36,906 nucleotides of DNA, taken from a virus (Duplodnaviria; Caudoviricetes). The notes beneath the pieces were generated by a model. The model made no database searches, had not been told where the DNA came from, and worked only from the letters and a program-made list of their open reading frames with translations. Positions 8,993-29,766 of this stretch are shown piece by piece; the stretch's first letter is position 1, and each line of letters begins with the position of its first letter. Location: IMG/VR virus record IMGVR_UViG_3300017913_000829, positions 1 through 36,906 of that record, one strand, 5' to 3'. Both the position numbers and the translations under genes were made by a program.

Positions 8993-10642
8993 ATGGCACG
9001 CACAGCACTCGAGATATTCCAAGCAGGCAAGCGCGCAGTTGAAGCGGGCGACATGAATGCGGCCAGAAAGCTCAAACGGATGCATCAGGAAGCGGTGCAA
9101 CGCGAAGCCGCAGAGCGCAGCGTTGCGGGCGAAGCTGCGTACGCAGGCGGTGCGGGCGTCGTTCGAGGGGCCGCTGAAGGCGCAAGCGTCGGCAGCCGCA
9201 TTCTAGATTTCATGCAGTTTGGCATTCCTGCTTACATTGCTGAAAATGTTTTAGGAGCCGAAAACGTAGAAGTGCCAGAGAGCGATCCCGGCGCATTGCG
9301 TCGTATAGCCTCGGACGTCACAGGCGGATACAGCGAATATCAAAGCCCGCGCTTTGTTGGCCAAGTTGCTGGCACTGGCGGCGAGTTTGTTGGCGGCGGC
9401 TTAACGATGCCAATCGGAGGGCCAGTTCGAGCGGCCGCTCAGTCTGTAGTGCCGGGCGTTGCAAGCGAGCTCGCGGGTCAAGCAGCGCAAGCCTATGCGC
9501 CAGAATATGAGGGCGCAGCTCGCTTAGTTGGCGCCCTTGGTGCGCCGTTCGCGACTGAGGGACTAAAGGCAGGCGCGCGTCGTGCGTTGACTGGCGGCGA
9601 AGCTCGCTTGGGTCGTGTTGGATCTGAACGAGCGCGCTCAATTCAGGCGCTAGAAGCGGCAGACGTTCCGCTGACCGCAGGACAAAAGTACGGCTCGACA
9701 TCGTTGATGCGCTTAGAAGGCGTTGAGGCGACCGACATCGAAACAATGGAAGGCATTTCTCAACAGGTAATGCGCCTGATGGGGTCAGACGCGCCCAAAG
9801 CGACGCGCTCAGCGATGCTAGAGCGCAAGCAGGCACTCGGAGACGTTTTCGAGCGTGCAGAGGCTGTGGCGGGCGATATTCCGACAGCGCAGGATGTGAC
9901 AGACATGGCGCGCGTTGCGCAACGCTTCCAAGATGCAAGCGGTGATGCAATGCCTCGTATCGTGAAGCAAGCGCTAGAGCGCATCGATGAGGCGGCTAAT
10001 ACTGGCGTACCTCTATCTGGCACAATGTTATCTGACTTCCGCACACGACTGAGCGATGTCATTGAAACAACGCTCGGCGACGAGCGTGCGGTCGCAGCCA
10101 TGGGTGCAAAAGAGGTCATCGACAACATCATTGAGCGCAGCGTCAAACGCCAAGATCCAGATTTGTTCCGCGAGCTTGTGACAGCGCGTGAGCAATATCG
10201 CGCATTCTTGACAGGCATGCGTGCGCTAAATCGCCAAGGCACGGACATCCGAGGCGGCATCATATCACCAGCGGCGTTGAGTAGCGCAGCCCGCATCCGA
10301 GAGGGCACAAAGTATCTGACTGGCACAGGATCACCATTGGGTGAGTTTGCGTTTGCGGCCGAGGAAATCGCGTCTAGCTTGCCTGCCGTCATGGCTGGCG
10401 GTGCTCGTACCGTGCAGGGCATGGGCGGCTTTGGTGGCGCTGTTCTTGGCGCAGAGGCGTTCTCCACACCGACAGCGGCCGCACTTGGCGGATTGGCGGG
10501 GATCGCTGCGCCGCGTATCGCTCAGTCGATCGTGCGCTCTGGTCCGGTGCAGCGCGGGCTTATGCCGCCAGAGCAAGTATTGTCGACCCGCCTGATTGAG
10601 CGACTAGCGCGTCAGCCCGGCGGGTTACTCGCGATCGATTAA
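8993..10642 (+). CDS. Putative large ejection (DNA transfer) protein
   Basis: 549 aa, A/G-rich and helical, with hydrophobic glycine-rich segments; last gene of the structural run. Confidence 0.65.
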   Translation: MARTALEIFQAGKRAVEAGDMNAARKLKRMHQEAVQREAAERSVAGEAAYAGGAGVVRGAAEGASVGSRILDFMQFGIPAYIAENVLGAENVEVPESDPGALRRIASDVTGGYSEYQSPRFVGQVAGTGGEFVGGGLTMPIGGPVRAAAQSVVPGVASELAGQAAQAYAPEYEGAARLVGALGAPFATEGLKAGARRALTGGEARLGRVGSERARSIQALEAADVPLTAGQKYGSTSLMRLEGVEATDIETMEGISQQVMRLMGSDAPKATRSAMLERKQALGDVFERAEAVAGDIPTAQDVTDMARVAQRFQDASGDAMPRIVKQALERIDEAANTGVPLSGTMLSDFRTRLSDVIETTLGDERAVAAMGAKEVIDNIIERSVKRQDPDLFRELVTAREQYRAFLTGMRALNRQGTDIRGGIISPAALSSAARIREGTKYLTGTGSPLGEFAFAAEEIASSLPAVMAGGARTVQGMGGFGGAVLGAEAFSTPTAAALGGLAGIAAPRIAQSIVRSGPVQRGLMPPEQVLSTRLIERLARQPGGLLAID

Positions 10643-10827
10643 CTAGACTTCTTGGCTCGCGTTTTTCTCGCGGGCTTTTTCTCTTCTGCGGGTGCAATGA
10701 TTTCGTCTTTAAAACGATTAAGAAGCTCTGCTGCTGTCTCGCACGCTCGAAACACAGCAAACACGTTTGCGGATCGATGCGGCTGGCGTAATACGTTTAA
10801 AAGCTCTTTGTATTCATGTTCTTGCAT
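10639..10827 (-). CDS. Small hypothetical protein with a basic tail (62 aa)
   Basis: GAGG upstream of ATG 10827; the stop overlaps the stop of the convergent gene. Confidence 0.6.
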   Translation of the reverse strand: MQEHEYKELLNVLRQPHRSANVFAVFRACETAAELLNRFKDEIIAPAEEKKPARKTRAKKSS

Positions 10828-10871: not shown

Positions 10872-10900
10872 TTGAAAAGCAAACTAGCGTGCTATATGTT
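10872..10900 (+). promoter_or_regulatory. Sigma70-type promoter TTGAAA-N17-TATGTT
   Basis: -35 at 10872-10877 and -10 at 10895-10900, with 17-bp spacing. Confidence 0.65.
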
Positions 10901-10906
10901 GTGCAT

Positions 10907-10975
10907 ATTCATGGTTAGAGCAACCACTCACTTCACTGCTTCACTGCACTCCCCGCTTCGGCGGGGATTTTTTTT
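10907..10975 (+). ncRNA. Putative ~70-nt trans-acting antisense sRNA
   Basis: Bounded by a promoter and an intrinsic terminator. It has a 5' hairpin TGGTT/AACCA (10912-10926) and an unpaired CTCACTTCACTGCTTCACTGCAC (10927-10949) complementary to several phage RBS regions. The 5' end is estimated. Confidence 0.6.
10950..10975 (+). terminator. Rho-independent terminator
   Basis: TCCCCGC-TTCG-GCGGGGA stem with a cUUCGg loop, followed by T8. Confidence 0.9.
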
Positions 10976-10977
10976 AG

Positions 10978-11008
10978 TTGAAACGGAGTCCGTTAACGCT
11001 TAGTTAAC
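10978..11008 (+). promoter_or_regulatory. Promoter with GTTAAC-N5-GTTAAC operator
   Basis: TTGAAA at 10978; GTTAACgcttaGTTAAC at 10992-11008. Confidence 0.7.
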
Positions 11009-11030
11009 AATAAGAAGTGAAGGAGGAACC

Positions 11031-11210
11031 ATGGAATACATCAAAACACTTGCCGCAGCCGTAAGCTGCACGGTCATCTCAATCGCAGGCCCGTTCGCCT
11101 GCGCATTGGGCATCGAGTACATCTTGCCGGGATTGGGCTACCCTGCGTTGGGCATCGCGTTGGTCGCGTGCCCAGTGCTCGGATGCAAGGCGATGGATCT
11201 GTTTGATTAA
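11031..11210 (+). CDS. 59-aa two-TM membrane protein (absent from the ORF track)
   Basis: AAGGAGG RBS; translates to MEYIKTLAAAVSCTVISIAGPFACALGIEYILPGLGYPALGIALVACPVLGCKAMDLFD. Confidence 0.75.
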   Translation: MEYIKTLAAAVSCTVISIAGPFACALGIEYILPGLGYPALGIALVACPVLGCKAMDLFD

Positions 11211-11327
11211 TCGTGTGGGCGGCGTGCTTGTGATCGGGTTATAGCGGGTCTGGCACAACCAACAAAACGCTGTATGTGTCAGAAAGCCGCCCACGCACAA
11301 TAACTATCAAAACTAGGAGTGAGATCA

Positions 11328-11570
11328 ATGGAATTTTTTACCGCATTCTACTTAGAATACGCAATCATGGGCAGGGATATACAGACGTATATACTCCTGC
11401 CCAGTTCTGAGGCGTGTCAGGTGTTTATCCGGGACAACGAAGACATGGCGGAGTACATGTACGCCGATGGCGACGTTGACATGTACTGCCGCGATACTGG
11501 CGTTTTGTCCAAGTCTATCAGGCCCAAGCTGCGACCCACTGACCTACGTCAAAGCACGGACAAGCCTTAG
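11328..11570 (+). CDS. Hypothetical protein (80 aa)
   Basis: AGGAG RBS before ATG 11328; overlaps the convergent amidase 3' end by 53 nt. Confidence 0.65.
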   Translation: MEFFTAFYLEYAIMGRDIQTYILLPSSEACQVFIRDNEDMAEYMYADGDVDMYCRDTGVLSKSIRPKLRPTDLRQSTDKP

Positions 11571-11958
11571 TCGCATAATCGTTGTGACCCGAGATCGTTG
11601 AGATCGTCGGAAACTCTTGCTGTAAGCTCTCGATCAGGGCTTGCAGCTCACGCGCTTGATCGACGGTGTAGTTATCCATGAACACGTCGTCAGCGCAGCC
11701 TCCACGCCCGCCTACGAGCGCAATGCCAATCGTTGTCTTGTTGTGCCCGCGTGTGTGCGCCCCGCTGCGCGTGATCGGGCGTCCAGCCGCGATCTGGCCA
11801 TTACGATGCACGACGAAGTGATAGCCAATGTCGGACCATCCGCGCTCGGTCGTGTGCCACCGGCGGATCTCCTTTACGACATCCGCTGCGTCTTTGTCTG
11901 CGTACCAGTTCGGATTGGTCGCCGTTGCGTGTATTACGATTTCGTCAATGTGTCTCAT
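11518..11958 (-). CDS. Endolysin, N-acetylmuramoyl-L-alanine amidase (T7 lysozyme/Amidase_2 type)
   Basis: Zinc-amidase motifs IVIHATAT, GWSDIGYHF, GAHTRGHN and GHNDYATKACPCF; start placed at the ATGA overlap. Confidence 0.92.
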   Translation of the reverse strand: MRHIDEIVIHATATNPNWYADKDAADVVKEIRRWHTTERGWSDIGYHFVVHRNGQIAAGRPITRSGAHTRGHNKTTIGIALVGGRGGCADDVFMDNYTVDQARELQALIESLQQEFPTISTISGHNDYATKACPCFDVGQWVAAWA

Positions 11959-12308
11959 TTTTTCTTTCCTCCAAGTCCCCGCATTGTTCTTATCCCAAAG
12001 GATGCGGCAATCGACGCGTACATGCCCCACTGCACCCAGAGGGGTGTCGTCTCAAGATTTGCAAATCCTCGTGCCATTGTATCCTGTAAAGACGGAACAA
12101 AATTAGCAGCAAGGATAAGCACAAACACAATCGTCCAAAGCTCATCTTTCCAACTATCCTTACTGGCCTCGATGGCCGCCTGTTCCCAGTTAATTTCGCC
12201 CGTCGCTTGTTTAAGTTTAATTTCGGCATTGGCCTTTTGAATTGCTGTCTTGCCGTCAATGTACGACGTAGCCAAGCCTGACAGCGCTTGCACGATGCCC
12301 CCGATCAT
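11955..12308 (-). CDS. Putative holin
   Basis: 117 aa; 'SWKDELW' followed by two hydrophobic helices, 'ASFGIR' and a basic tail; directly upstream of the endolysin. Confidence 0.7.
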   Translation of the reverse strand: MIGGIVQALSGLATSYIDGKTAIQKANAEIKLKQATGEINWEQAAIEASKDSWKDELWTIVFVLILAANFVPSLQDTMARGFANLETTPLWVQWGMYASIAASFGIRTMRGLGGKKK

Positions 12309-12511
12309 TTCTTTTGCTCCCCGTTCATCCAGATACCAAAGCAGCCGGTTAGCGCGCCCATGCACACAGAAACAAGACCCGCCTGACCATTTGTGGGCGC
12401 TTCAAGGCCCATGTACCAGTGTACCGATTGATAAGTTAGTATAGTGACGGCTAACATCATAAGCCGTGGGATGACTTTCCAGTCATCAACGAATGTACGA
12501 GCCATTTGCAT
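12305..12511 (-). CDS. Small two-TM membrane protein (holin/antiholin candidate)
   Basis: 68 aa, two hydrophobic segments, GGAG RBS, Met-Gln-Met start. Confidence 0.7.
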   Translation of the reverse strand: MQMARTFVDDWKVIPRLMMLAVTILTYQSVHWYMGLEAPTNGQAGLVSVCMGALTGCFGIWMNGEQKK

Positions 12512-12608
12512 ATCTCTCCGCTATTTCTCGACTGGTCGTGATTATAACGACTTTCCCGCATTTGTCATATACTGCGTACTTCATGTTTCCGATCTGCACC
12601 AATTGCAT
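12486..12608 (-). CDS. 40-aa hypothetical protein
   Basis: MQLVQIGNMKYAVYDKCGKVVIITTSREIAERYANGSYIR; fills the gap and starts immediately after the upstream stop. Confidence 0.45.
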   Translation of the reverse strand: MQLVQIGNMKYAVYDKCGKVVIITTSREIAERYANGSYIR

Positions 12609-13076
12609 TTACCATTTGCCTTGTTGCTTCCCCACGAACCAGAACACAAACGCCATGATAACCGCTGCCAAAACAAAGATAATAAAGCCAAACGTCCACT
12701 CAATGATCGCTTGTTTCATCTTGGCTTTTTTGAAATCGGTTTTCTCCTTTTGCTTTTTCATATCCCGCAGGATCTGCTTGTACTCCTCAAGCCCGGTCGG
12801 GCCGTGTACATAGCGGATCATGTTTTCTAGTTCGGTCTTGAGAGACTGAGCTTTCTTTTTCGCGGCAAAGGCGTTAGCCGCGCGCTCCTCCATTGAGCCG
12901 CTAAATGTCTTGTACCATGGCGGGTTCTTTGCCTGACGCTCTGCTTCGTTAATATCTGCCCACGCGCCTGCAAACTTTGACATGGCTTGTGTGGTGTCGC
13001 GTCCCGCATTGATAAGCTGCCGCATCTGCCCGACGGCTGTGCTGGCAACGCTTAACGCTGTGATTGGATCGATCAT
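12609..13076 (-). CDS. Membrane-anchored coiled-coil protein
   Basis: 155 aa; MIDPIT start; helical body with a single C-terminal TM segment. Confidence 0.75.
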   Translation of the reverse strand: MIDPITALSVASTAVGQMRQLINAGRDTTQAMSKFAGAWADINEAERQAKNPPWYKTFSGSMEERAANAFAAKKKAQSLKTELENMIRYVHGPTGLEEYKQILRDMKKQKEKTDFKKAKMKQAIIEWTFGFIIFVLAAVIMAFVFWFVGKQQGKW

Positions 13077-13234
13077 GCTAGTTCTAACCTCGCTGGGCAG
13101 ATGTACTCTGGGCTTACGCGGTACATTCTATCATAATAACCAAATCTTCGCGACCCGCAGTCATAGTAGCACAATTTGTGAAATCCAAGCGTGAACGTCT
13201 GGCCCCATGCTATAGCGACCAAAGTGCAGATCAT
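13073..13234 (-). CDS. 53-aa Cys-containing hypothetical protein
   Basis: ATGA overlaps at both ends; four Cys (C..CYYDC..CP). Confidence 0.55.
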   Translation of the reverse strand: MICTLVAIAWGQTFTLGFHKLCYYDCGSRRFGYYDRMYRVSPEYICPARLELA

Positions 13235-13398
13235 TTTGCCCGAGACAAAAAGTCTTCCCACATAGGTTTAATCATCTTGTAATTCTCTTCAACCTTGTAC
13301 GTCGTTAGCGTCATCTTTGCGTTCATTTGGTAAAGCTGTAATGATCCCCAGCTTAGCATACCAAGCGCGATAACACCTAAAATTTGCTCGATCTTCAT
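13231..13398 (-). CDS. 55-aa protein with N-terminal TM segment (absent from the ORF track)
   Basis: MKIEQILGVIALGMLSWGSLQLYQMNAKMTLTTYKVEENYKMIKPMWEDFLSRAK; ATGA-coupled on both sides. Confidence 0.65.
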   Translation of the reverse strand: MKIEQILGVIALGMLSWGSLQLYQMNAKMTLTTYKVEENYKMIKPMWEDFLSRAK

Positions 13399-13595
13399 AG
13401 GCCGTCCATCTTCATCAAAACTGCGACAAGCAAACCGATGATTGAGCCAGCGGCTGCAAGCAGAATACTTTCCAAACGCTTCACGCGTGTAAAGAGGTCC
13501 TTGAACTGGATTTTTACCTCAGTTTTTATGGCCACAACTTCCTTTTCCAATCCGTCAATGCGCTCATGCGCGCTGGCTACAGTGCGTCGATCCAT
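13395..13595 (-). CDS. Coiled-coil protein with C-terminal TM segment (XhlA-like architecture)
   Basis: 66 aa; GAGGTAGGA RBS; first gene of the lysis cassette. Confidence 0.75.
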   Translation of the reverse strand: MDRRTVASAHERIDGLEKEVVAIKTEVKIQFKDLFTRVKRLESILLAAAGSIIGLLVAVLMKMDGL

Positions 13596-13657: not shown

Positions 13658-13688
13658 TTGTAACTCTAATTGTTAACATTAAGTTAAC
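13658..13688 (+). promoter_or_regulatory. Promoter with GTTAAC-N5-GTTAAC operator
   Basis: TTGTAA at 13658; GTTAACattaaGTTAAC at 13672-13688; same geometry as 10978-11008. Confidence 0.7.
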
Positions 13689-13714
13689 AGTATAAGAGTG
13701 AAGGAGACAAAAAA

Positions 13715-13957
13715 ATGACAAACACAGCTAAAAAAGTTCGTAAAGGTTTTTACACATACAACGGTCACTTGATCGTAAATCGTGAGCTTGGTGGACAAAA
13801 GCATTGGGCAATTTTTGAAGAAGCACCAGAAGGCTCAGAGCTTCCTATGTCTATGTATCACATCACCAACTTTAACACTAAGCGTGAGTGTGAGCGTCAT
13901 ATTGATGCGCTTACATCATGGGCGCGTCAGCCAGTCACAATCGGTTTAACGTATTAA
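13715..13957 (+). CDS. Hypothetical early protein (80 aa)
   Basis: AAGGAG RBS; first gene after the operator-bearing promoter. Confidence 0.8.
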   Translation: MTNTAKKVRKGFYTYNGHLIVNRELGGQKHWAIFEEAPEGSELPMSMYHITNFNTKRECERHIDALTSWARQPVTIGLTY

Positions 13958-14000
13958 TCAACGGGGCTTCGGCCCCACCTTACAGTGAAGGAGACAGAAA

Positions 14001-14195
14001 ATGACATACATTGATAACGACGATTACTGGGCAAGACAGTGGCAGCTAGAAGCTGAGGCGGAGGAATACGAAATCGAAAAGCAGCGCATTGAGCTACAAA
14101 ACGCATCTGGCGTTGATATGCCAGACTTAGGGCCATATCGCAATTATTTCGATTTCGTAGATTGTAAGTTTGAAAGCACAGAAATCCCATTTTAA
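14001..14195 (+). CDS. Small acidic early protein ending in EIPF
   Basis: AAGGAG RBS; 64 aa, strongly acidic. Confidence 0.75.
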   Translation: MTYIDNDDYWARQWQLEAEAEEYEIEKQRIELQNASGVDMPDLGPYRNYFDFVDCKFESTEIPF

Positions 14196-14205
14196 TTCTG
14201 GCAAG

Positions 14206-14239
14206 TTGATCCCGCTGTTACTTCCATGTTAACAGCGGG
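14206..14239 (+). promoter_or_regulatory. Degenerate operator and 10-bp inverted repeat upstream of the RHH gene
   Basis: TTGATC at 14206; GTTACTtccatGTTAAC at 14217-14233, within CCCGCTGTTA...TAACAGCGGG. Confidence 0.55.
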
Positions 14240-14258
14240 GAAACATATGGAGATACCA

Positions 14259-14435
14259 ATGATCACACCAGTTTCACTGAAACCCGCCGAAGAGTTAAAA
14301 CAGATTGGACCGCGCATCAGCGAGACGGTCGCCAAGTCACTAGCGGACTACAGCAAGCGCACCCGGATGCCGCAGGCGCTAATCGTGGAAAGCGCGCTAC
14401 GCGAACTACTAAAGGACGCAGGCTATGACGTCTAA
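14259..14435 (+). CDS. Ribbon-helix-helix (Arc/CopG-like) DNA-binding protein
   Basis: KQIGPRIS strand followed by two helices (ETVAKSLADYSKRT and PQALIVESALRELL); GGAG RBS. Confidence 0.75.
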   Translation: MITPVSLKPAEELKQIGPRISETVAKSLADYSKRTRMPQALIVESALRELLKDAGYDV

Positions 14436-16290: not shown

Positions 16291-16347
16291 CAAAAGTAAT
16301 AACGCGCCTCGCCTAACAGCGGGGCGTAACCACATCAGGAAGTGAGC

Positions 16348-18537
16348 ATGTCTGAAGCATATTTTAACAAGGTTCGCGAAAGCGCCGTCGGCGAAATGCT
16401 GACAACAATAAAAGGCGGTCGCAACGAAACACTGAACAAGGCAGCGTACGCGCTCGGTCGCCACGCACACCTTGCACCCGCAAACATCGATGCAGCCGTC
16501 TCAGAGCTGCACGCAGCCGCAAAACAAATCGGCCTGAACGAAATCGAAATCAAAGCCACAATTGGATCTGGCTTTAAACGCGGCGGCGAAAACCCAAAGG
16601 TTCTCGAAGACAGCGACGCGCTGCCGTACAGCGCGTCCGAGTTTGACCGCCTGATCGGTCGTCTGGCAAACAAAGAGGTGCTCGTACGCGACGAGGAAAC
16701 ACGCCAAGACAAGATTAAGAAAGCGCAGGAACAGTGGGAGCGCGCTGTACCGATCTCACGCGAAACGACGGACGCTGTGCGCCCGGCACTCCTTTACCTC
16801 AACTCACGCGGCCTCAGAGCGTCTACAGCGGTCGACACAGCGCGCTTTGCGCCTAACGTTTACGGTGGGCCCGCGATTGTGTTCCCAGCCTATAGCGAGG
16901 ACGGAGACTTACGCGGCGTGCAAGCCGTGTTACTCACGCCCGAAGGTAAGAAGCGCGAGCACAATGGCATCGCCAAATATTCGCGCGGTGTGCTTGCTGG
17001 AAACGCGATGAAGATAGACGGCGGAGCGCCGATCATCATTTGCGAGGGGCCAGAGGACGCGCTGAGCGTGCGACAGGCGGCCGGAGACGCCGCGACAGTC
17101 GTGTGTACGTTCGGCAAGGCTGGTATGGCCTCGTACAACGTTCCACGCGCCTCAGACGTCACGATATGCGCTGATCCTGACCTAGACGTCGACAAGTGCG
17201 CAGAGGTGCTTGCAGGGGACGGCAGCAACGCCGTACACGTCGTCCGTTTCGATCAGCTTGGCGTCGAAAACGTCAAGGACGCCAACGACTACCTAAAGGA
17301 AGCTGGGGAGGACGAGCTAAAGCGCGCGCTTGCGCAAGCCAAACCTGTGGACCAAGTAAAGCAGGAAGCGATCGCAACCGAGCGCAACTGGCCGACGCTG
17401 TTTGAGCCGATCGACGCCGCAAACATTCCCGCGCGTCGTTGGGTTTACGGACACCACTACATCCGCTCCTACGTCAGCGTCGTGGCATCCGCCGGGGGCT
17501 TAGGCAAGTCATCCATGCAAATGGTAGAAGCGGTCAGCATTGCCACTGGCAAGGCGCTACTCGGCGAGGCCGTGCACGAGCAATGCAAGGTGTGGATCGT
17601 CAACCTAGAAGATCCGCTCGAAGAGATGCAGCGACGCATGGCAGCCGTCATGCAGCATTACGACATCAAGGCCGACGACATCCGCGGTAAAATTTTCCTA
17701 GACGCTGGGCGCGATCTAAAGATGATCTTTGCCAAGCAAACGCGCGACGGTCTCGAGATCATCGAAGAAATCGTGGAATACATGATCAAGGTTATCAATG
17801 ACAACGGCATCTCCGTCGTCTTCATTGACCCTTGGGTCGCGGCGATGGGTGGCATCAGCGAAAACGACAACATGGCTATGAACGCAGCCGTGGGCGCCGT
17901 CAGAGCCATCGCGGATGCGACAGACGCCGCAATCGTGCTCACGCACCACATTCGCAAGACAAACGGCGAGGAAGCAACAATCGATAGCGTCCGGGGCGCA
18001 GGCTCGCTCATTGGCGCAGCTCGTGCCGCGCGTGTTCTTAATCGCGTATCGCAAGAGGAAGCGATGAAGCTTGGCGTGTCCGAAGAGGGCAGTCTAGGCA
18101 TCTTCCGCGTCGACGACGGCAAGAACAACCTAAGCTTACCCGCATCCAAGGCGCTCTACAGGCGCATGGAGAGCGTACTGCTCGCCAACGGTGAGTTTGT
18201 CGGCGTCGCCACAGAGTTTAAGCTGCCTGATCTCTTTGACGGCATCAGCGCCAAGCACGCGATGGAGGTGCAGAAGCTCGTAGGCGCAGCCGAAGAACGC
18301 GGAGAGCCGATGCGCAAAAACGCGCAGGCAAAAACGTGGGTCGGGCAAGCGGTCGCCGTCGTGCTCGATCTCGACATGGAAAAGAAACACGAGAAAGCGA
18401 AAGCAAAAGCCGTCATCGCCAAATGGCTAGAGACAGGCGTGCTGCGCGAAGACACTTGGAAAAGCGGACGCGATGGACGCGAGGTGCCGATCATCATCGT
18501 TGGCGAATGGATCAGTAGAGCGGAGGCAGGGCTATGA
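16348..18537 (+). CDS. Primase-helicase (PriCT-like, Toprim, RepA-type AAA)
   Basis: GGRNETLNKAAYALG; Toprim motifs ICEGPEDAL, ICADPD and KDANDYL; Walker A ASAGGLGKSS; Walker B VVFIDP; HHIRK; RGAGS. Confidence 0.88.
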   Translation: MSEAYFNKVRESAVGEMLTTIKGGRNETLNKAAYALGRHAHLAPANIDAAVSELHAAAKQIGLNEIEIKATIGSGFKRGGENPKVLEDSDALPYSASEFDRLIGRLANKEVLVRDEETRQDKIKKAQEQWERAVPISRETTDAVRPALLYLNSRGLRASTAVDTARFAPNVYGGPAIVFPAYSEDGDLRGVQAVLLTPEGKKREHNGIAKYSRGVLAGNAMKIDGGAPIIICEGPEDALSVRQAAGDAATVVCTFGKAGMASYNVPRASDVTICADPDLDVDKCAEVLAGDGSNAVHVVRFDQLGVENVKDANDYLKEAGEDELKRALAQAKPVDQVKQEAIATERNWPTLFEPIDAANIPARRWVYGHHYIRSYVSVVASAGGLGKSSMQMVEAVSIATGKALLGEAVHEQCKVWIVNLEDPLEEMQRRMAAVMQHYDIKADDIRGKIFLDAGRDLKMIFAKQTRDGLEIIEEIVEYMIKVINDNGISVVFIDPWVAAMGGISENDNMAMNAAVGAVRAIADATDAAIVLTHHIRKTNGEEATIDSVRGAGSLIGAARAARVLNRVSQEEAMKLGVSEEGSLGIFRVDDGKNNLSLPASKALYRRMESVLLANGEFVGVATEFKLPDLFDGISAKHAMEVQKLVGAAEERGEPMRKNAQAKTWVGQAVAVVLDLDMEKKHEKAKAKAVIAKWLETGVLREDTWKSGRDGREVPIIIVGEWISRAEAGL

Positions 18538-25784: not shown

Positions 25785-25816
25785 GGTAAAACTCACTGTT
25801 TGTTAGTTATACAGTG

Positions 25817-25845
25817 TATATATGTTAACATGTCGTTAACATCAA
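25817..25845 (-). promoter_or_regulatory. Promoter TTGATG-N17-TATATA with GTTAAC-N5-GTTAAC operator in the spacer
   Basis: GTTAACatgtcGTTAAC at 25824-25840; -35 at 25845-25840 and -10 at 25822-25817 on the minus strand. Confidence 0.7.
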
Positions 25846-26022
25846 CCCCTAGATTGAGAAAAAATGCATTTTATGGCAAATTGTTTTTATGCGGCACCCA
25901 TTTCCCGCTCGAGCCGCATAGAGCATCCTCAAGCTCCCCCACGCGTTCAACTCCCTGTGCGCGTGGGGTTTATTTTGAGCGATTTTCCTGTATTATGCTC
26001 ATTAACGCAAAAGGAGATAGCA

Positions 26023-27209: not shown

Positions 27210-27628
27210 TGGACCCATTTCTGCGTAAGCTATATGTCGACCTGACGATGGATGAGGACAACGCGTACCGTCTGCGTGAGGATGACACCGAAGGCTATAT
27301 GTACAGCGACAACACGATTATGCGTGCGTTGCGTAAGCTCGAGGCCGCAAAGGACGCAGACGAGTTTAGCTATCTTGTAAAAGCGATGCGTGAGTATGGT
27401 CCGCGTGCTGGTGCGTCTATGAACTACGAAACAAGCAACTACGCCGGCCAAGATTTCTTCGATGATAGATTGGCGGATTATCAAGAGGCCGGTCGACGCG
27501 GTGATATCTTGGGTCAGGGGAAAGCGATGGCGCGCGTTGGCATGGGATTGCTAAATCCGCTCAGTTCGGGCGATAAGCGCGCAGGCGTTACACGCGGATT
27601 ATTACGTTATATTTCGGAGAGAGAGTGA
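27209..27628 (+). CDS. Hypothetical protein (139 aa)
   Basis: Coupled ORF within the operon. Confidence 0.7.
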   Translation: MDPFLRKLYVDLTMDEDNAYRLREDDTEGYMYSDNTIMRALRKLEAAKDADEFSYLVKAMREYGPRAGASMNYETSNYAGQDFFDDRLADYQEAGRRGDILGQGKAMARVGMGLLNPLSSGDKRAGVTRGLLRYISERE

Positions 27629-29766
27629 TGGTAGATCGTGCTGGCGAACAAAGATACGGGCGCGAAATCAACAGCCCATTTGCTCAGTTTTACGCAGCCA
27701 AACGTCGCCACGATGTAAATATGGCGTTAGCGAGACGTCGTCAGCACGCTCTTGGTCTGACGTCACCAGTAGGTGGTGCTAATAGTTTATCTGACGTAGG
27801 ATTTAATGCAGCCAGCTTAGGCTTTGGGATACTAGATCCGATTTTTCGTGCAGCCGACAGTTTTGTGTCCGCCGATCGCGGTCTGATCCCGCAGGAAGAC
27901 ATGATCGGCGAAGCGTTAAATGTTACTGGTATTGCCACGGCTGGTGCAAGTGCTGTGCCTGTAAAGGGTCCGGCGTTGCGCTCAAACAATTTAAGCGGGC
28001 TTATCTCGGATGACACGCCACGAATTACTACAGAGCCCGAGTTTCGACCAGAGACGTATTATCACGGCACGCGCGCCGACATCGATGCGTTTGACAGCGA
28101 TCTAGTAGATCTAGGTGTTCATGTTGGTACTAAGGGCCAAGCAAACGAGCGTTTGAATGATTTGGTCAAAAAGGAAAGTCCTGTTTACTCTGGCGGCATC
28201 TTTGGGGCATTTGATTTGCCAGAGGGGCACGCTAGTCGCACACCTGATAGTGCATTTGTAACTGGCGAAGGATCAGCCGAAGGCGCGCAAATTATGCCTT
28301 TGCGCGTTCGTGCGGACTACCCATTACGCATGCCAGACGCTGGAGAATGGAACCGCGCCGAAGTCGTGATGTATCACCTTGAAAAGATGATGGGTCCAGA
28401 TGGCGACCCAAGGTTACGCGAGGCGTTTGAGGATTTTGATTTCGACGAACTCGAAACTGTGCGTGATCAATTCTTCGACAATGACGACTGGAAAGCCAGT
28501 CTCGAAAACCGTGAGTTTTTAGACGAGATACGAGAGCGCATCCAAGATGCGGGATACGACAGCATTGTTTACAGAAATGCTGTAGAGAGTACGCGCGATG
28601 AAGGCATCCAAGACAGCATGATTGTCCTAGACCCTCGTAACATTCGCTCGGTCAATGCTGCTTTTGATCCTGCCTTTGAGGGGAGTGACAATCTACTTCT
28701 TGCGAACAGGTCGCGCGCAGCCGGCGCTCTTGGCGTTAGCGTAAAACCACCCACTAAAGAAGAGCTCGATCCGCTTGGCTACCAGAAAACCAAGATGCGC
28801 AAGTCGCTTTTCAACACCGAGGTCGACGAGGTCGATCTAGGCGAAAACTTGCTACGCATCCCACGTTCTTGGGAAGAGATGGAGAACCGCCTGATTTTGC
28901 CGTTTTACGGTGACCGCACAAGCCGTGGCATGGAAGTGCGCGGAGTTGATGGCATGGTTTTCGATACGCCTGTATATACCGAGGGCGGTGTGGACTTTAT
29001 GCGTGGCCCCGCTGCGCAAGCTGACCGCGCTATCTGGGCGTCGAACAGCAACATCATTAAGCGTATCGCAGATGAGGCGGAAGCCGCGCGCAAGGCGGCA
29101 GCCGGGGAGCCTGTGTTTGGTATGACTGGCTCAATGGCTCCTGATGCAAACGACTTTGCGGTGCATACTGGGTCTGTGATGGCTGAGATGGTCAAGAAGT
29201 CCAAGATAAATCGTGAGACAGCGGCGTCATTCAATGACGCAATGCGCGTCGTTGATGAGACGTTCCCCGGCATTCGGTCACCGAAGCTGCGCGAATGGGT
29301 CGACAGCACAACATCGCCAAAGCGTAAAATGTTTATTCGTTTGATGGACAGCGCACCGATGCAGGCTGGCGGTATGCCAAGTCCAGCGCAGGCGCGTTAT
29401 GCTGCCACGGATGCGACGCAGCGTAACATGGGATCAGGTCAGTTCGGCATGGGTGTCGCGCAGCTTGATGAGCTGTCCCCGATTTTGCGAATTAATCCCG
29501 AGGGCAACCGTCCGGGGCAATCATTCCCGCACCGCACATACAACACACAAATCACCGGAGATTACTTTGGTTCGCTTCCACCCGTTCCGCAGGGCTTATT
29601 GTTTAAGGACGTCTATGATAGAATGGAAGGCGGGGTCACTAAAAAAGGCCAGCCGTACAACGAAGCACATAAGACGCATGCAATCAAAACAATTATGCCA
29701 GTACAGCGTTTGCGACCAGAAATCATCGAAGGTATCCTAAACTATCTTCAGCGCACCGGTAACTAA
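27625..29766 (+). CDS. Polyvalent protein with an ADP-ribosyltransferase-like (ART-PolyVal) domain and an unknown C-terminal domain
   Basis: YYHGT..DIDAFD....LGVHVGT..QA, IMPLRVR...PL and GYDSIVYRN...SMIVLDPRNIRSVNAAFDP. Confidence 0.7.
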   Translation: MMVDRAGEQRYGREINSPFAQFYAAKRRHDVNMALARRRQHALGLTSPVGGANSLSDVGFNAASLGFGILDPIFRAADSFVSADRGLIPQEDMIGEALNVTGIATAGASAVPVKGPALRSNNLSGLISDDTPRITTEPEFRPETYYHGTRADIDAFDSDLVDLGVHVGTKGQANERLNDLVKKESPVYSGGIFGAFDLPEGHASRTPDSAFVTGEGSAEGAQIMPLRVRADYPLRMPDAGEWNRAEVVMYHLEKMMGPDGDPRLREAFEDFDFDELETVRDQFFDNDDWKASLENREFLDEIRERIQDAGYDSIVYRNAVESTRDEGIQDSMIVLDPRNIRSVNAAFDPAFEGSDNLLLANRSRAAGALGVSVKPPTKEELDPLGYQKTKMRKSLFNTEVDEVDLGENLLRIPRSWEEMENRLILPFYGDRTSRGMEVRGVDGMVFDTPVYTEGGVDFMRGPAAQADRAIWASNSNIIKRIADEAEAARKAAAGEPVFGMTGSMAPDANDFAVHTGSVMAEMVKKSKINRETAASFNDAMRVVDETFPGIRSPKLREWVDSTTSPKRKMFIRLMDSAPMQAGGMPSPAQARYAATDATQRNMGSGQFGMGVAQLDELSPILRINPEGNRPGQSFPHRTYNTQITGDYFGSLPPVPQGLLFKDVYDRMEGGVTKKGQPYNEAHKTHAIKTIMPVQRLRPEIIEGILNYLQRTGN

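Follow-up and report, generated by a model that had tools for sequence, protein, structure and literature searches.

A predicted phage small RNA complementary to the ribosome-binding sites of its own early and replication genes

Does a short non-coding stretch between two small phage genes specify a regulatory RNA, and, if so, which mRNAs would it address? The stretch lies in the window, the whole of a virus record (36,906 nt), which is a complete 36.9-kb podophage genome with direct terminal repeats at its ends. A cassette is present here that is conserved in the phage family, is complementary to ribosome-binding sites (RBSs) of the same genome, and matches these in a lineage-specific manner. 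We regard it, with a probability of roughly 0.7, as the gene of a trans-acting small RNA (sRNA) of about 70 nt that would block translation of the phage's primase-helicase and of the lead genes of its early units.

The genes called in the window include those for portal, scaffold, capsid, ejection proteins, terminase, a Holliday-junction resolvase, exonuclease VIII, a primase-helicase (16348-18537), a DNA methyltransferase, and a ribbon-helix-helix protein (RHH, 14247-14435). A lysis-like block with amidase-like and membrane proteins, recognized by eye, lies inside the early region (11518-13595, minus strand), and a 713-aa protein encoded 5' of the portal gene (27625-29766, plus strand) gave a weak ART-PolyVal match below the cut-off (E 1.5e-4). 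The capsid shares 47% identity with that of Sinorhizobium phage phiM5, and searches with the capsid and the element against cultured phages found no close cultured relative of the window phage. The best holders of the sequence are seawater metagenomes, and over a stretch of 74 bases the gene at 11328 shares 80% identity with DNA of Roseobacter phage CRP-738. Because of these two likenesses and of CtrA-type promoter boxes described below, the host is probably a marine alphaproteobacterium, likely of the Roseobacter group. Two contigs of the phage family (L262 and L316, both G024) were found inside a metagenome-assembled genome labelled Opitutae, where they are probably misbinned. A tyrosine integrase (PF00589) was matched in none of 20 family records, ten of them near-complete, and no antirepressor was found among the 59 ORFs scanned in the window.

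Architecture and conservation of the cassette

A sequence-only reading of this locus had proposed a promoter, a 5' hairpin, a linker with a tandem repeat, and a UUCG terminator in succession, and all of its coordinates hold (Table 1). The predicted RNA has its own promoter, and there is no gene on the same strand upstream of it; the structural operon ends at 10642, facing a converging small gene. The -35 element is arranged back to back (TTG-N5-CAA) with the likely -35 element of the divergent gene. Taken by itself, the promoter scan performed at chance level (14 found, 10.7 expected). The element of the window folded with a z score of -3.3, and none of 200 shuffles was as good. The terminator had a fold probability of 0.98-1.0, read-through RNA included, and the two halves of the linker, which carries CTTCACTG twice, had mean unpaired probabilities of 0.78 and 0.65. 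An attenuator or antiterminator was considered and discarded because folding of the read-through RNA revealed no such structure. It had also been claimed that no ORF led by a Shine-Dalgarno (SD) motif crosses the RNA, and this stood up, as the ATG-led frame that exists there lacks an SD motif. A peptide-coding function was rejected: the frame is common to the window and one relative (G001), continues through the terminator, is missing from 4 of 13 RNAs, lies in different frames in two further relatives (G015 and G016), and is disrupted in strain contigs by the insertion of one base.

Table 1. Features of the cassette, its predicted target sites and the early promoter boxes (positions in the window)
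Feature	Position	Strand	Remarks
Sigma-70-type promoter, TTGAAA-N17-TATGTT	10872..10900	+	TTGAAA 10872-10877, TATGTT 10895-10900
Predicted small RNA, about 70 nt	10906..10975	+	5' end inferred from the -10 box
Weak 5' hairpin	10912..10926	+	stem kept among relatives, sequence varies
Single-stranded linker, seed region	10927..10949	+	CTCACTTCACTG core, tandem repeat, ACT at the terminator base
Intrinsic terminator	10950..10975	+	7-bp stem (10950-10967), UUCG loop, U8
Divergent 62-aa gene	10639..10827	-	syntenic cassette marker; shares the promoter region; not a predicted target
Predicted target, RBS of 59-aa gene at 11031	11012..11025	+	AGTGAAG 11016-11022; rank 1/54
Predicted target, RBS of 80-aa gene at 11328	11316..11323	+	8 bp, one G-U
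Predicted target AGTGAAG, gene at 13715	13697-13703	+	rank 24/54 with accessibility; bare duplex -13.0 kcal/mol
Predicted target, RBS of 64-aa gene at 14001	13983..13993	+	rank 2/54
Predicted target, primase-helicase RBS	16339..16346	+	8/8 match; rank 5/54
Predicted target AGTGAGT, first accessory-operon gene (start 25784)	25791-25797	-	rank 15/54
First early promoter, TTGAAA and TTAA-N7-TTAA box (10993-11007)	10978..11007	+	CtrA-type by consensus
Second early promoter box	13673-13687	+	TTAA-N7-TTAA, before gene at 13715
Third early promoter box	25825-25839	-	TTAA-N7-TTAA, before accessory operon

The neighbours of the cassette are phage genes for proteins of 62 and 59 aa without a Pfam match. 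The divergent 62-aa protein also had no PHROG or fold match, and its structure consists of two helices. Members of its family have 57-90 aa, invariant L-x2-P-x-R-x2-N and C-x2-A-A motifs, and a Lys/Ala/Pro tail, and in many relatives the promoter of the gene is overlapped by a CtrA-type box. One metatranscriptome contig spans 10761-10975 and 22 letters beyond; because it contains flanks beyond the RNA and may represent DNA, it counts neither for nor against expression. A branched stem-loop, also present in G001, lies between two early genes (11213-11300, plus strand), and its 5' part had the top summed contig depth in one metatranscriptome, a measure that cannot show expression.

Homologue searches yielded 80 loci with the exonuclease and 47 loci with the small divergent protein, and a family set of 36 records was analyzed, namely the window and 35 records picked for length and spread. 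The cassette pattern, defined as TTG-N5-CAA-N12-TA followed by 45-125 bases to a terminator, was matched in 28 of the 36; three records of lineage X and a second contig of G024 raised this to 32, always at the same place, and the cassette was present in all ten near-complete family records. The pattern was unmatched in G010, which has the RNA body and an altered -35 element, and in three fragments (G033, G034, and G035). All 11 examples that were folded beat their shuffles (z -2.8 to -5.5). The linkers fell into eight types, and in 19 of 21 distinct linkers an ACT was located at most 9 nt from the terminator stem. Promoter spacing, linker, and basal ACT were kept where the coding neighbours turn over.

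Within lineage A, the lineage of the window (seed CUCACUUCACUG), the core of the linker is unchanging. Strain contigs from four studies had 10-12 differences each from the window, none of which is listed in 10923-10944; changes in the 5' hairpin fell within and beside its loop, and for one contig the counts show that 10906-10975 is identical to the window. Because the linker types track the primase-helicase and exonuclease trees, the lineage was used as the unit of the tests described below. On the primase-helicase tree, lineage A is sister to lineage X (96/92).

Searches beyond the family were less productive. A BLAST search with the element against cultured phages gave terminator-level matches only, an exact 18-mer scan a single chance match in a coding region, and a metagenome scan with the cassette pattern 119 loci (13 of 64 parts), just two of which were true homologues. 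A second conserved non-coding element precedes the late genes of the window (25888-25976, plus strand); it has three hairpins, C-rich anti-SD-like loops, and a terminator, and gave no Rfam match in the window. It was found in 9 of the 17 records spanning the region, with differing stem sequences and with CCTCCTCCC in a loop of one copy, and in G006 and G007 a SorX-like RNA (30.2 bits) takes its place. This element is probably a second sRNA, cuckoo- or AbcR-like.

Predicted target sites in the window

Six words complementary to the seed had been named at translation starts, and all six are present at their positions. The sites were ranked among the 54 called starts with an accessibility-corrected duplex model, which is our own approximation and not IntaRNA. 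In three of the six target genes the promoter is overlapped by a TTAA-N7-TTAA box, and such boxes recur through the whole family; boxed genes are penalized in the ranking, because the accessibility term takes in upstream promoter DNA that would stay untranscribed. The duplex at the accessory operon (-8.8) was the weakest of the six. At the site of 11316-11323, a relative reads AAGTGAGT.

A genome-wide count of the target words and a test of their enrichment at starts had been proposed. AGTGAAG is not enriched in the genome, as six copies on both strands were found and 4.2 expected; its position departs from chance, with three of the four copies outside the element located at RBSs. The shorter AGTGA was found within 25 nt of 5 of the 54 called starts (0.83 expected, binomial p 0.0014), and the gene at 11328, which is absent from the gene-caller output, has a sixth site beyond these five. 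The start count alone is modest, because the control word CGTGA was also found at 4 of the 54 starts. Among shuffled linkers, 29 of 2000 paired as well with the six named targets.

The three AGTGAAGGAG sites resemble copies of a single promoter/RBS cassette and are therefore not independent. In one strain contig, 332 other letters stand between 10975 and 11016, and the sequence rejoins at the AGTGAAG site, from which we conclude that early-gene cassettes are inserted between the terminator and the first gene. This likeness and this mobility would suit a purely cis-acting element, in which read-through RNA folds the linker onto the next RBS and the distal words are passive copies of the promoter/RBS cassette, and the linker was indeed predicted to pair with the 11031 site in read-through RNA. 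Nevertheless, we consider a cis-only element quite improbable. The leaders of the primase-helicase gene and the accessory operon match although neither is a copy of the cassette and their distances from the element are 5 and 15 kb, the adjacent gene is served by a promoter of its own beyond the terminator, an antiterminator fold was not found, and the distal gene classes were significant alone in the following comparison of lineages.

Joint variation of seed and targets among lineages

If the linker pairs with phage mRNAs in trans, seed and targets should covary among relatives, a check proposed in the sequence-only reading, and such covariation was found. In lineage A, AGTGA[A/G] or AATGAAG was present at 14 of 16 early and primase-helicase starts, compared to 1 of 59 in the other lineages and none of 21 late genes. 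The word was found at all five adjacent genes, at five of the seven distal boxed genes (two are without it), and at all four primase-helicase genes. In lineage F, which has the seed UACUUCUCC, all seven boxed early leaders contained GGAGAA[G/T], compared to 1 of 49 elsewhere and none of 11 late leaders; it was present in neither of the two primase-helicase leaders of this lineage. For these counts it has to be considered that early leaders are duplicated cassettes, so that the sites are not independent, and that part of the data had already been inspected by eye when the idea arose.

The host-type seed UCCCUGU is changed to UCACUGU or UCACUGC in the window lineage, and its target sites have AGUGA in place of the AGGGA or GGGAG of other lineages. 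The C-to-A exchange in the seed is mirrored by a G-to-U exchange in the targets, with ACAGGGA in the primase-helicase leaders of E2, B1, and F2 and AGTGA in those of A. Of 37 distinct primase-helicase leaders from all loci collected, seven contained AGTGAG, all of them from lineage A, and seven contained ACAGGG, versus 5 and 12, respectively, of 1145 other leaders.

The match was quantified in a double-centred matrix of 15 RNAs (out of at least 25 distinct ones) and 291 distinct leaders, using exact permutation over lineages. The leaders were chosen by rule, four labels were corrected by synteny, and ten gene classes were tested; of the two p values given, the first takes into account the hybrid and the opening of the RNA, the second also the opening of the target. 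The cognate excess was -2.2 kcal/mol for the adjacent gene (p 0.0006 and 0.007, 8 lineages), -2.4 kcal/mol for the distal boxed genes (p 0.0014 and 0.017, 6 lineages), and -1.3 kcal/mol for the primase-helicase (p 0.045 and 0.014, 7 lineages). The latter two classes, which pooled gave p values of 0.0012 and 0.0014 (8 lineages), weigh most because the sites there cannot pair in cis. The exonuclease leaders were borderline positive (p 0.05 and 0.006) and without a match in lineage A. Late, ssb, resolvase, divergent-gene, and RHH leaders showed no cognate excess in the matrix (p 0.29-0.98). Lineage A contributed the largest share of the signal, and lineages C and G are represented by one record each; the picture was unchanged without lineage C. 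A type I toxin-antitoxin pair with the divergent gene was rejected, as no cognate excess was found (p 0.59-0.83), although the RNA of sub-lineage A1 pairs with the divergent gene (rank 2/39). Individual gaps were also seen at the primase-helicase leader, which has no match in F (rank 50/57 in G020), a weak one in D, and none in one record of E (L052).

In addition, the 22-base linkers were shuffled with preservation of composition (n = 200 per RNA). For early targets, shuffles as good as the native linker numbered 0-1 of 200 in lineage A (3 of 3 RNAs), 1 in E (2 of 2), 4 in F1, and 1 in X (1 of 1); F2 was borderline with 13 of 200. The linkers of B, C, D, and G did not beat their shuffles (17-85 of 200); the likely seeds of lineage B are in the 5' arm and the loops, beyond the reach of this test. 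Late genes showed no significant linker pairing in any lineage. These results bear on the possibility that the hairpin is simply a terminator or insulator beside the divergent promoter and that pyrimidine-rich linkers match purine-rich RBSs by composition. The promoter scan at chance level, the four lineages that fail the shuffles, and the frequency of CGTGA near starts are in line with it. Nevertheless, its probability is very low in our judgement: composition-preserving shuffles fail to reproduce the pairing in A, E, F1, and X, late genes have no excess, promoter spacing, linker, and ACT are conserved, and the structural operon has already ended at 10642.

Taken together, matrix, shuffles, and word counts show that the exposed seed is complementary to unlinked mRNAs beyond chance. 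The earlier proposal of one trans-acting RNA masking the RBSs of early lead genes and of the primase-helicase is thus supported, as a prediction, by start enrichment, shuffles, and covariation. A real sRNA could also be directed chiefly at host mRNAs, as a captured mimic of the host RNAs alphaR8, SorX, and SorY that silences transporter or stress genes, the match to the phage being secondary. Lineages X, G, and E2 keep the host-type CUCCCUGU seed, the host RNA SisA is described as repressing many host mRNAs through an anti-SD motif (PMC12559287), and a SorX/SorY-type 3' module recurs in three other phage contexts. Furthermore, the X-type RNA pairs well with leaders from most lineages (-11.5 with A leaders, cognate -13.8). 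A host-directed seed, however, would be expected to be fixed, whereas the seed has drifted in A and F, and four non-homologous phage leaders have changed along with it while late leaders have not. We therefore regard host mRNAs as unlikely to be the chief targets.

An unrelated 75-kb phage (G040, loci L341-L344), the capsid of which is nearest to those of HTVC023P-like phages, has a hairpin where its early strand ends, with the seed CCCUCACUUCA in the loop (L088, 9985-10080, minus strand). AGTGAG precedes 12 of its ATG-led ORFs, all on the early strand and 11 of them as AGTGAGG, compared to a control frequency of 0.11 per 10 kb (71 loci). No relatives of G040 were found in the collection. At the level of sequence, G040 is an independent case of the same seed and target word. 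A scan for CCTCACTT followed by a terminator gave 121 loci (13 of 64 parts), of which 80 measured 4 kb or more; six had an unpaired seed, and none of the six had two or more target sites.

The sequence-only reading had offered as an alternative that the repeats are decoys for a protein. In this case the repeats would be DNA operators or decoys for a protein, for example the RHH protein or the 62-aa protein, that binds CAGTGAAG just 3' of early start sites. The 8-bp repeat stands in tandem, the target words are a few bases downstream of three promoters, and an RHH gene is present. The decoy idea has little force, since what the RNA carries is not the mRNA word but its complement. The element is antisense to the mRNA word in all matching lineages and in G040, G-U pairs are required in several of the duplexes, there is no boxed promoter at the primase-helicase site, and the family resembles known base-pairing RNAs; accordingly, we give a protein-binding site hardly any credence.

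Proposed role and comparison with known RNAs

The predicted RNA would likely switch off translation of early and replication genes, because its exposed stretch complements their RBSs and varies with them in step by lineage. TTAA-N7-TTAA is the CtrA consensus, described in promoters of alphaproteobacterial phages and associated with 'lytic deferment' (PMC9437464); that work concerns transcription, and the phrase 'small RNA' is absent from its main text (PMC9437464). A degenerate box (14218-14232) is located 5' of the RHH gene, and for this reason the phage RHH protein is an alternative reader of the boxes to host CtrA. The sRNA promoter of the window has no such box. With a box-free promoter of its own, the RNA would accumulate independently of the early promoters and could act as a delayed brake. 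In our proposal, it would be transcribed from 10872-10900 and, judged by its U8 tail and by the trait of the family, be loaded by host Hfq; base-pairing over SD regions would then repress translation, as the SD motif itself is covered. Accumulating after entry, it would curb the primase-helicase and the lead gene of every early unit. In productive infection this may bring about a delayed shut-off of early and replication proteins, and while the boxed promoters are held off by CtrA or by the phage RHH protein, leaky transcripts may be kept silent. As a consequence of the private code, superinfecting phages of the same lineage might be excluded. Immunity had been suggested as a role before; in its classical lysogenic form it is unlikely because a match to an integrase is absent (PF00589, 0 of 20 records).

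More tentatively, non-integrating marine phages may have captured a host Hfq-binding RNA of the alphaR8/SorX/SorY type and turned it on themselves, private codes of seed and RBS serving as an off-switch for early and replication genes on top of CtrA sensing and as a means of kin exclusion without repressor or integrase, and host alphaR8 RNAs gating phage replication, according to nutrient or stress state, in lineages with retained host-type sites. We hold this wider scenario to be possible rather than probable.

The TTAA-N7-TTAA boxes, the divergent 62-aa gene, and the likeness to SorX, SorY, and alphaR8 were absent from the sequence-only reading, which had named c4, P4 CI, and cuckoo RNAs as analogues; the host RNAs turned out to be closer. 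The alphaR8/suhB RNAs (RF00519: MmgR, SisA-D), SorX (RF02784), and SorY (RF02651, Rhodobacter) have the size, the weak 5' hairpin, the anti-SD linker, and the terminator in common with the window RNA. Aligned end to end to Rfam models, lineage X scored 35.0 bits with SorX, 32.5 with SorY, and 30.7 with suhB; it has a run of 15 letters in common with the consensus of SorY and one of 13 with that of SorX, and CCUCCCUGUUGGA is present in lineage X as in the consensus lines of both Rhodobacter RNAs. The linker CCUCCCUGUUGGA(CU) before the terminator is whole in X, partial in G, E2, and A2, and altered in the window. A lineage A copy aligned end to end with SorX at 27.8 bits, and lineages G and A2 reached 31.5 and 27 bits. 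With the SorX model (gathering score 46.6), none of 33 records scored above the cut-off; 7 of 33 matched at E <= 1, the best with 35 bits, and the same loose search also matched 9 of 14 control genomes. In the window, Rfam gave nothing above threshold, with no match to SorX, alphaR8, c4, or cuckoo. Because the scores are below the cut-off, the window has no hit, and control genomes match as well, we base descent on the identity of 13-15 letters at the homologous position and on the graded series X, G, E2, E1, A. As the SorX/SorY linker recurs in a sister lineage with almost every letter unchanged, the window RNA is likely derived from a host sRNA of the SorX/SorY/alphaR8 type, its seed having drifted. 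A SorX/SorY-type 3' module with a terminator was also seen in other phages (L331/L333, L336, and L332): after a 392-aa gene, probably for a capsid, in G036 and G039, before the scaffold gene in G037, and in G038; no clear early-gene match was seen in these four.

Three features define the alphaR8 family, namely a weak hairpin, the 10-mer UUUCCUCCCU in single-stranded form, and a terminator; with Hfq, SisA represses mRNAs by pairing 5' of their start codons (PMC12559287). SorX is described as inhibiting the translation of potA (PMC9438474). The window RNA shares the alphaR8 architecture and is probably descended from such an RNA, yet by the defining motif it falls outside the family: the 10-mer is missing, the linker reads CCACUCACUU in its place, and only lineage X keeps the last eight letters. 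The alphaR8 gathering score of 41 was not reached, the window giving no hit and lineage X 30.7 bits. Whereas alphaR8 RNAs are mostly encoded next to the FGase gene and SorX is processed from the 3' end of an ompR-type mRNA, the window RNA has its own promoter and stands beside the phage 62-aa and 59-aa genes, the former divergent. Moreover, unlike that of the host RNAs, the seed of the phage RNA varies by lineage and matches phage early leaders.

Base-pairing RNAs of phages and related elements are already known, c4, sar, and SviR among them (PMC12197685, 10.1101/2022.04.08.487710, PMC4615179, PMC7143759). The c4 RNA of P1 and P7, of about 77 nt, is described as acting in trans near the RBS of an mRNA of its own phage, differences in its seeds leading to heteroimmunity (PMC12197685). 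It addresses one antirepressor operon in a temperate phage through seeds borne in loops, whereas the window RNA would address five to six unlinked genes through one linker in a phage without an integrase match; the Rfam C4 model gave no match in the window at E <= 5 or 10. The P4 CI RNA arises by processing of the immunity leader and acts through premature termination; it likewise had no Rfam match in the window. Cuckoo/CcsR RNAs, also alphaproteobacterial anti-SD sRNAs, have two to four hairpins with CCUCCUCCC in each loop (PMC4615179); the window RNA lacks such loops and has its seed in the linker. P22 sar blocks a phage RBS (PMC12197685), and SviR of the Vibrio cholerae satellite PLE pairs with several mRNAs of its own or of the helper phage (10.1101/2022.04.08.487710). 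Both are base-pairing RNAs of mobile elements, as proposed for the window RNA; they differ from it in that sar has a single target and SviR is satellite-encoded. In the literature searched, an incomplete set, neither a phage-borne RNA of the alphaR8/SorX type nor a multi-target RNA against the early regulon of a lytic phage itself was found. Phage RNAs that control genes of their own phage are described as having mostly one target and as serving lysogeny (PMC12197685). The RNA predicted here, in contrast, would address several unlinked early and replication genes via a code in their RBSs. Within the family, seeds grade from the host type to derived forms accompanied by matching targets, so that nature offers an experiment in compensatory mutation, and two questions thereby become directly testable with simple reporters: how lytic phages without a polymerase of their own turn down early genes, and whether host sRNAs are recruited by phages as regulators.
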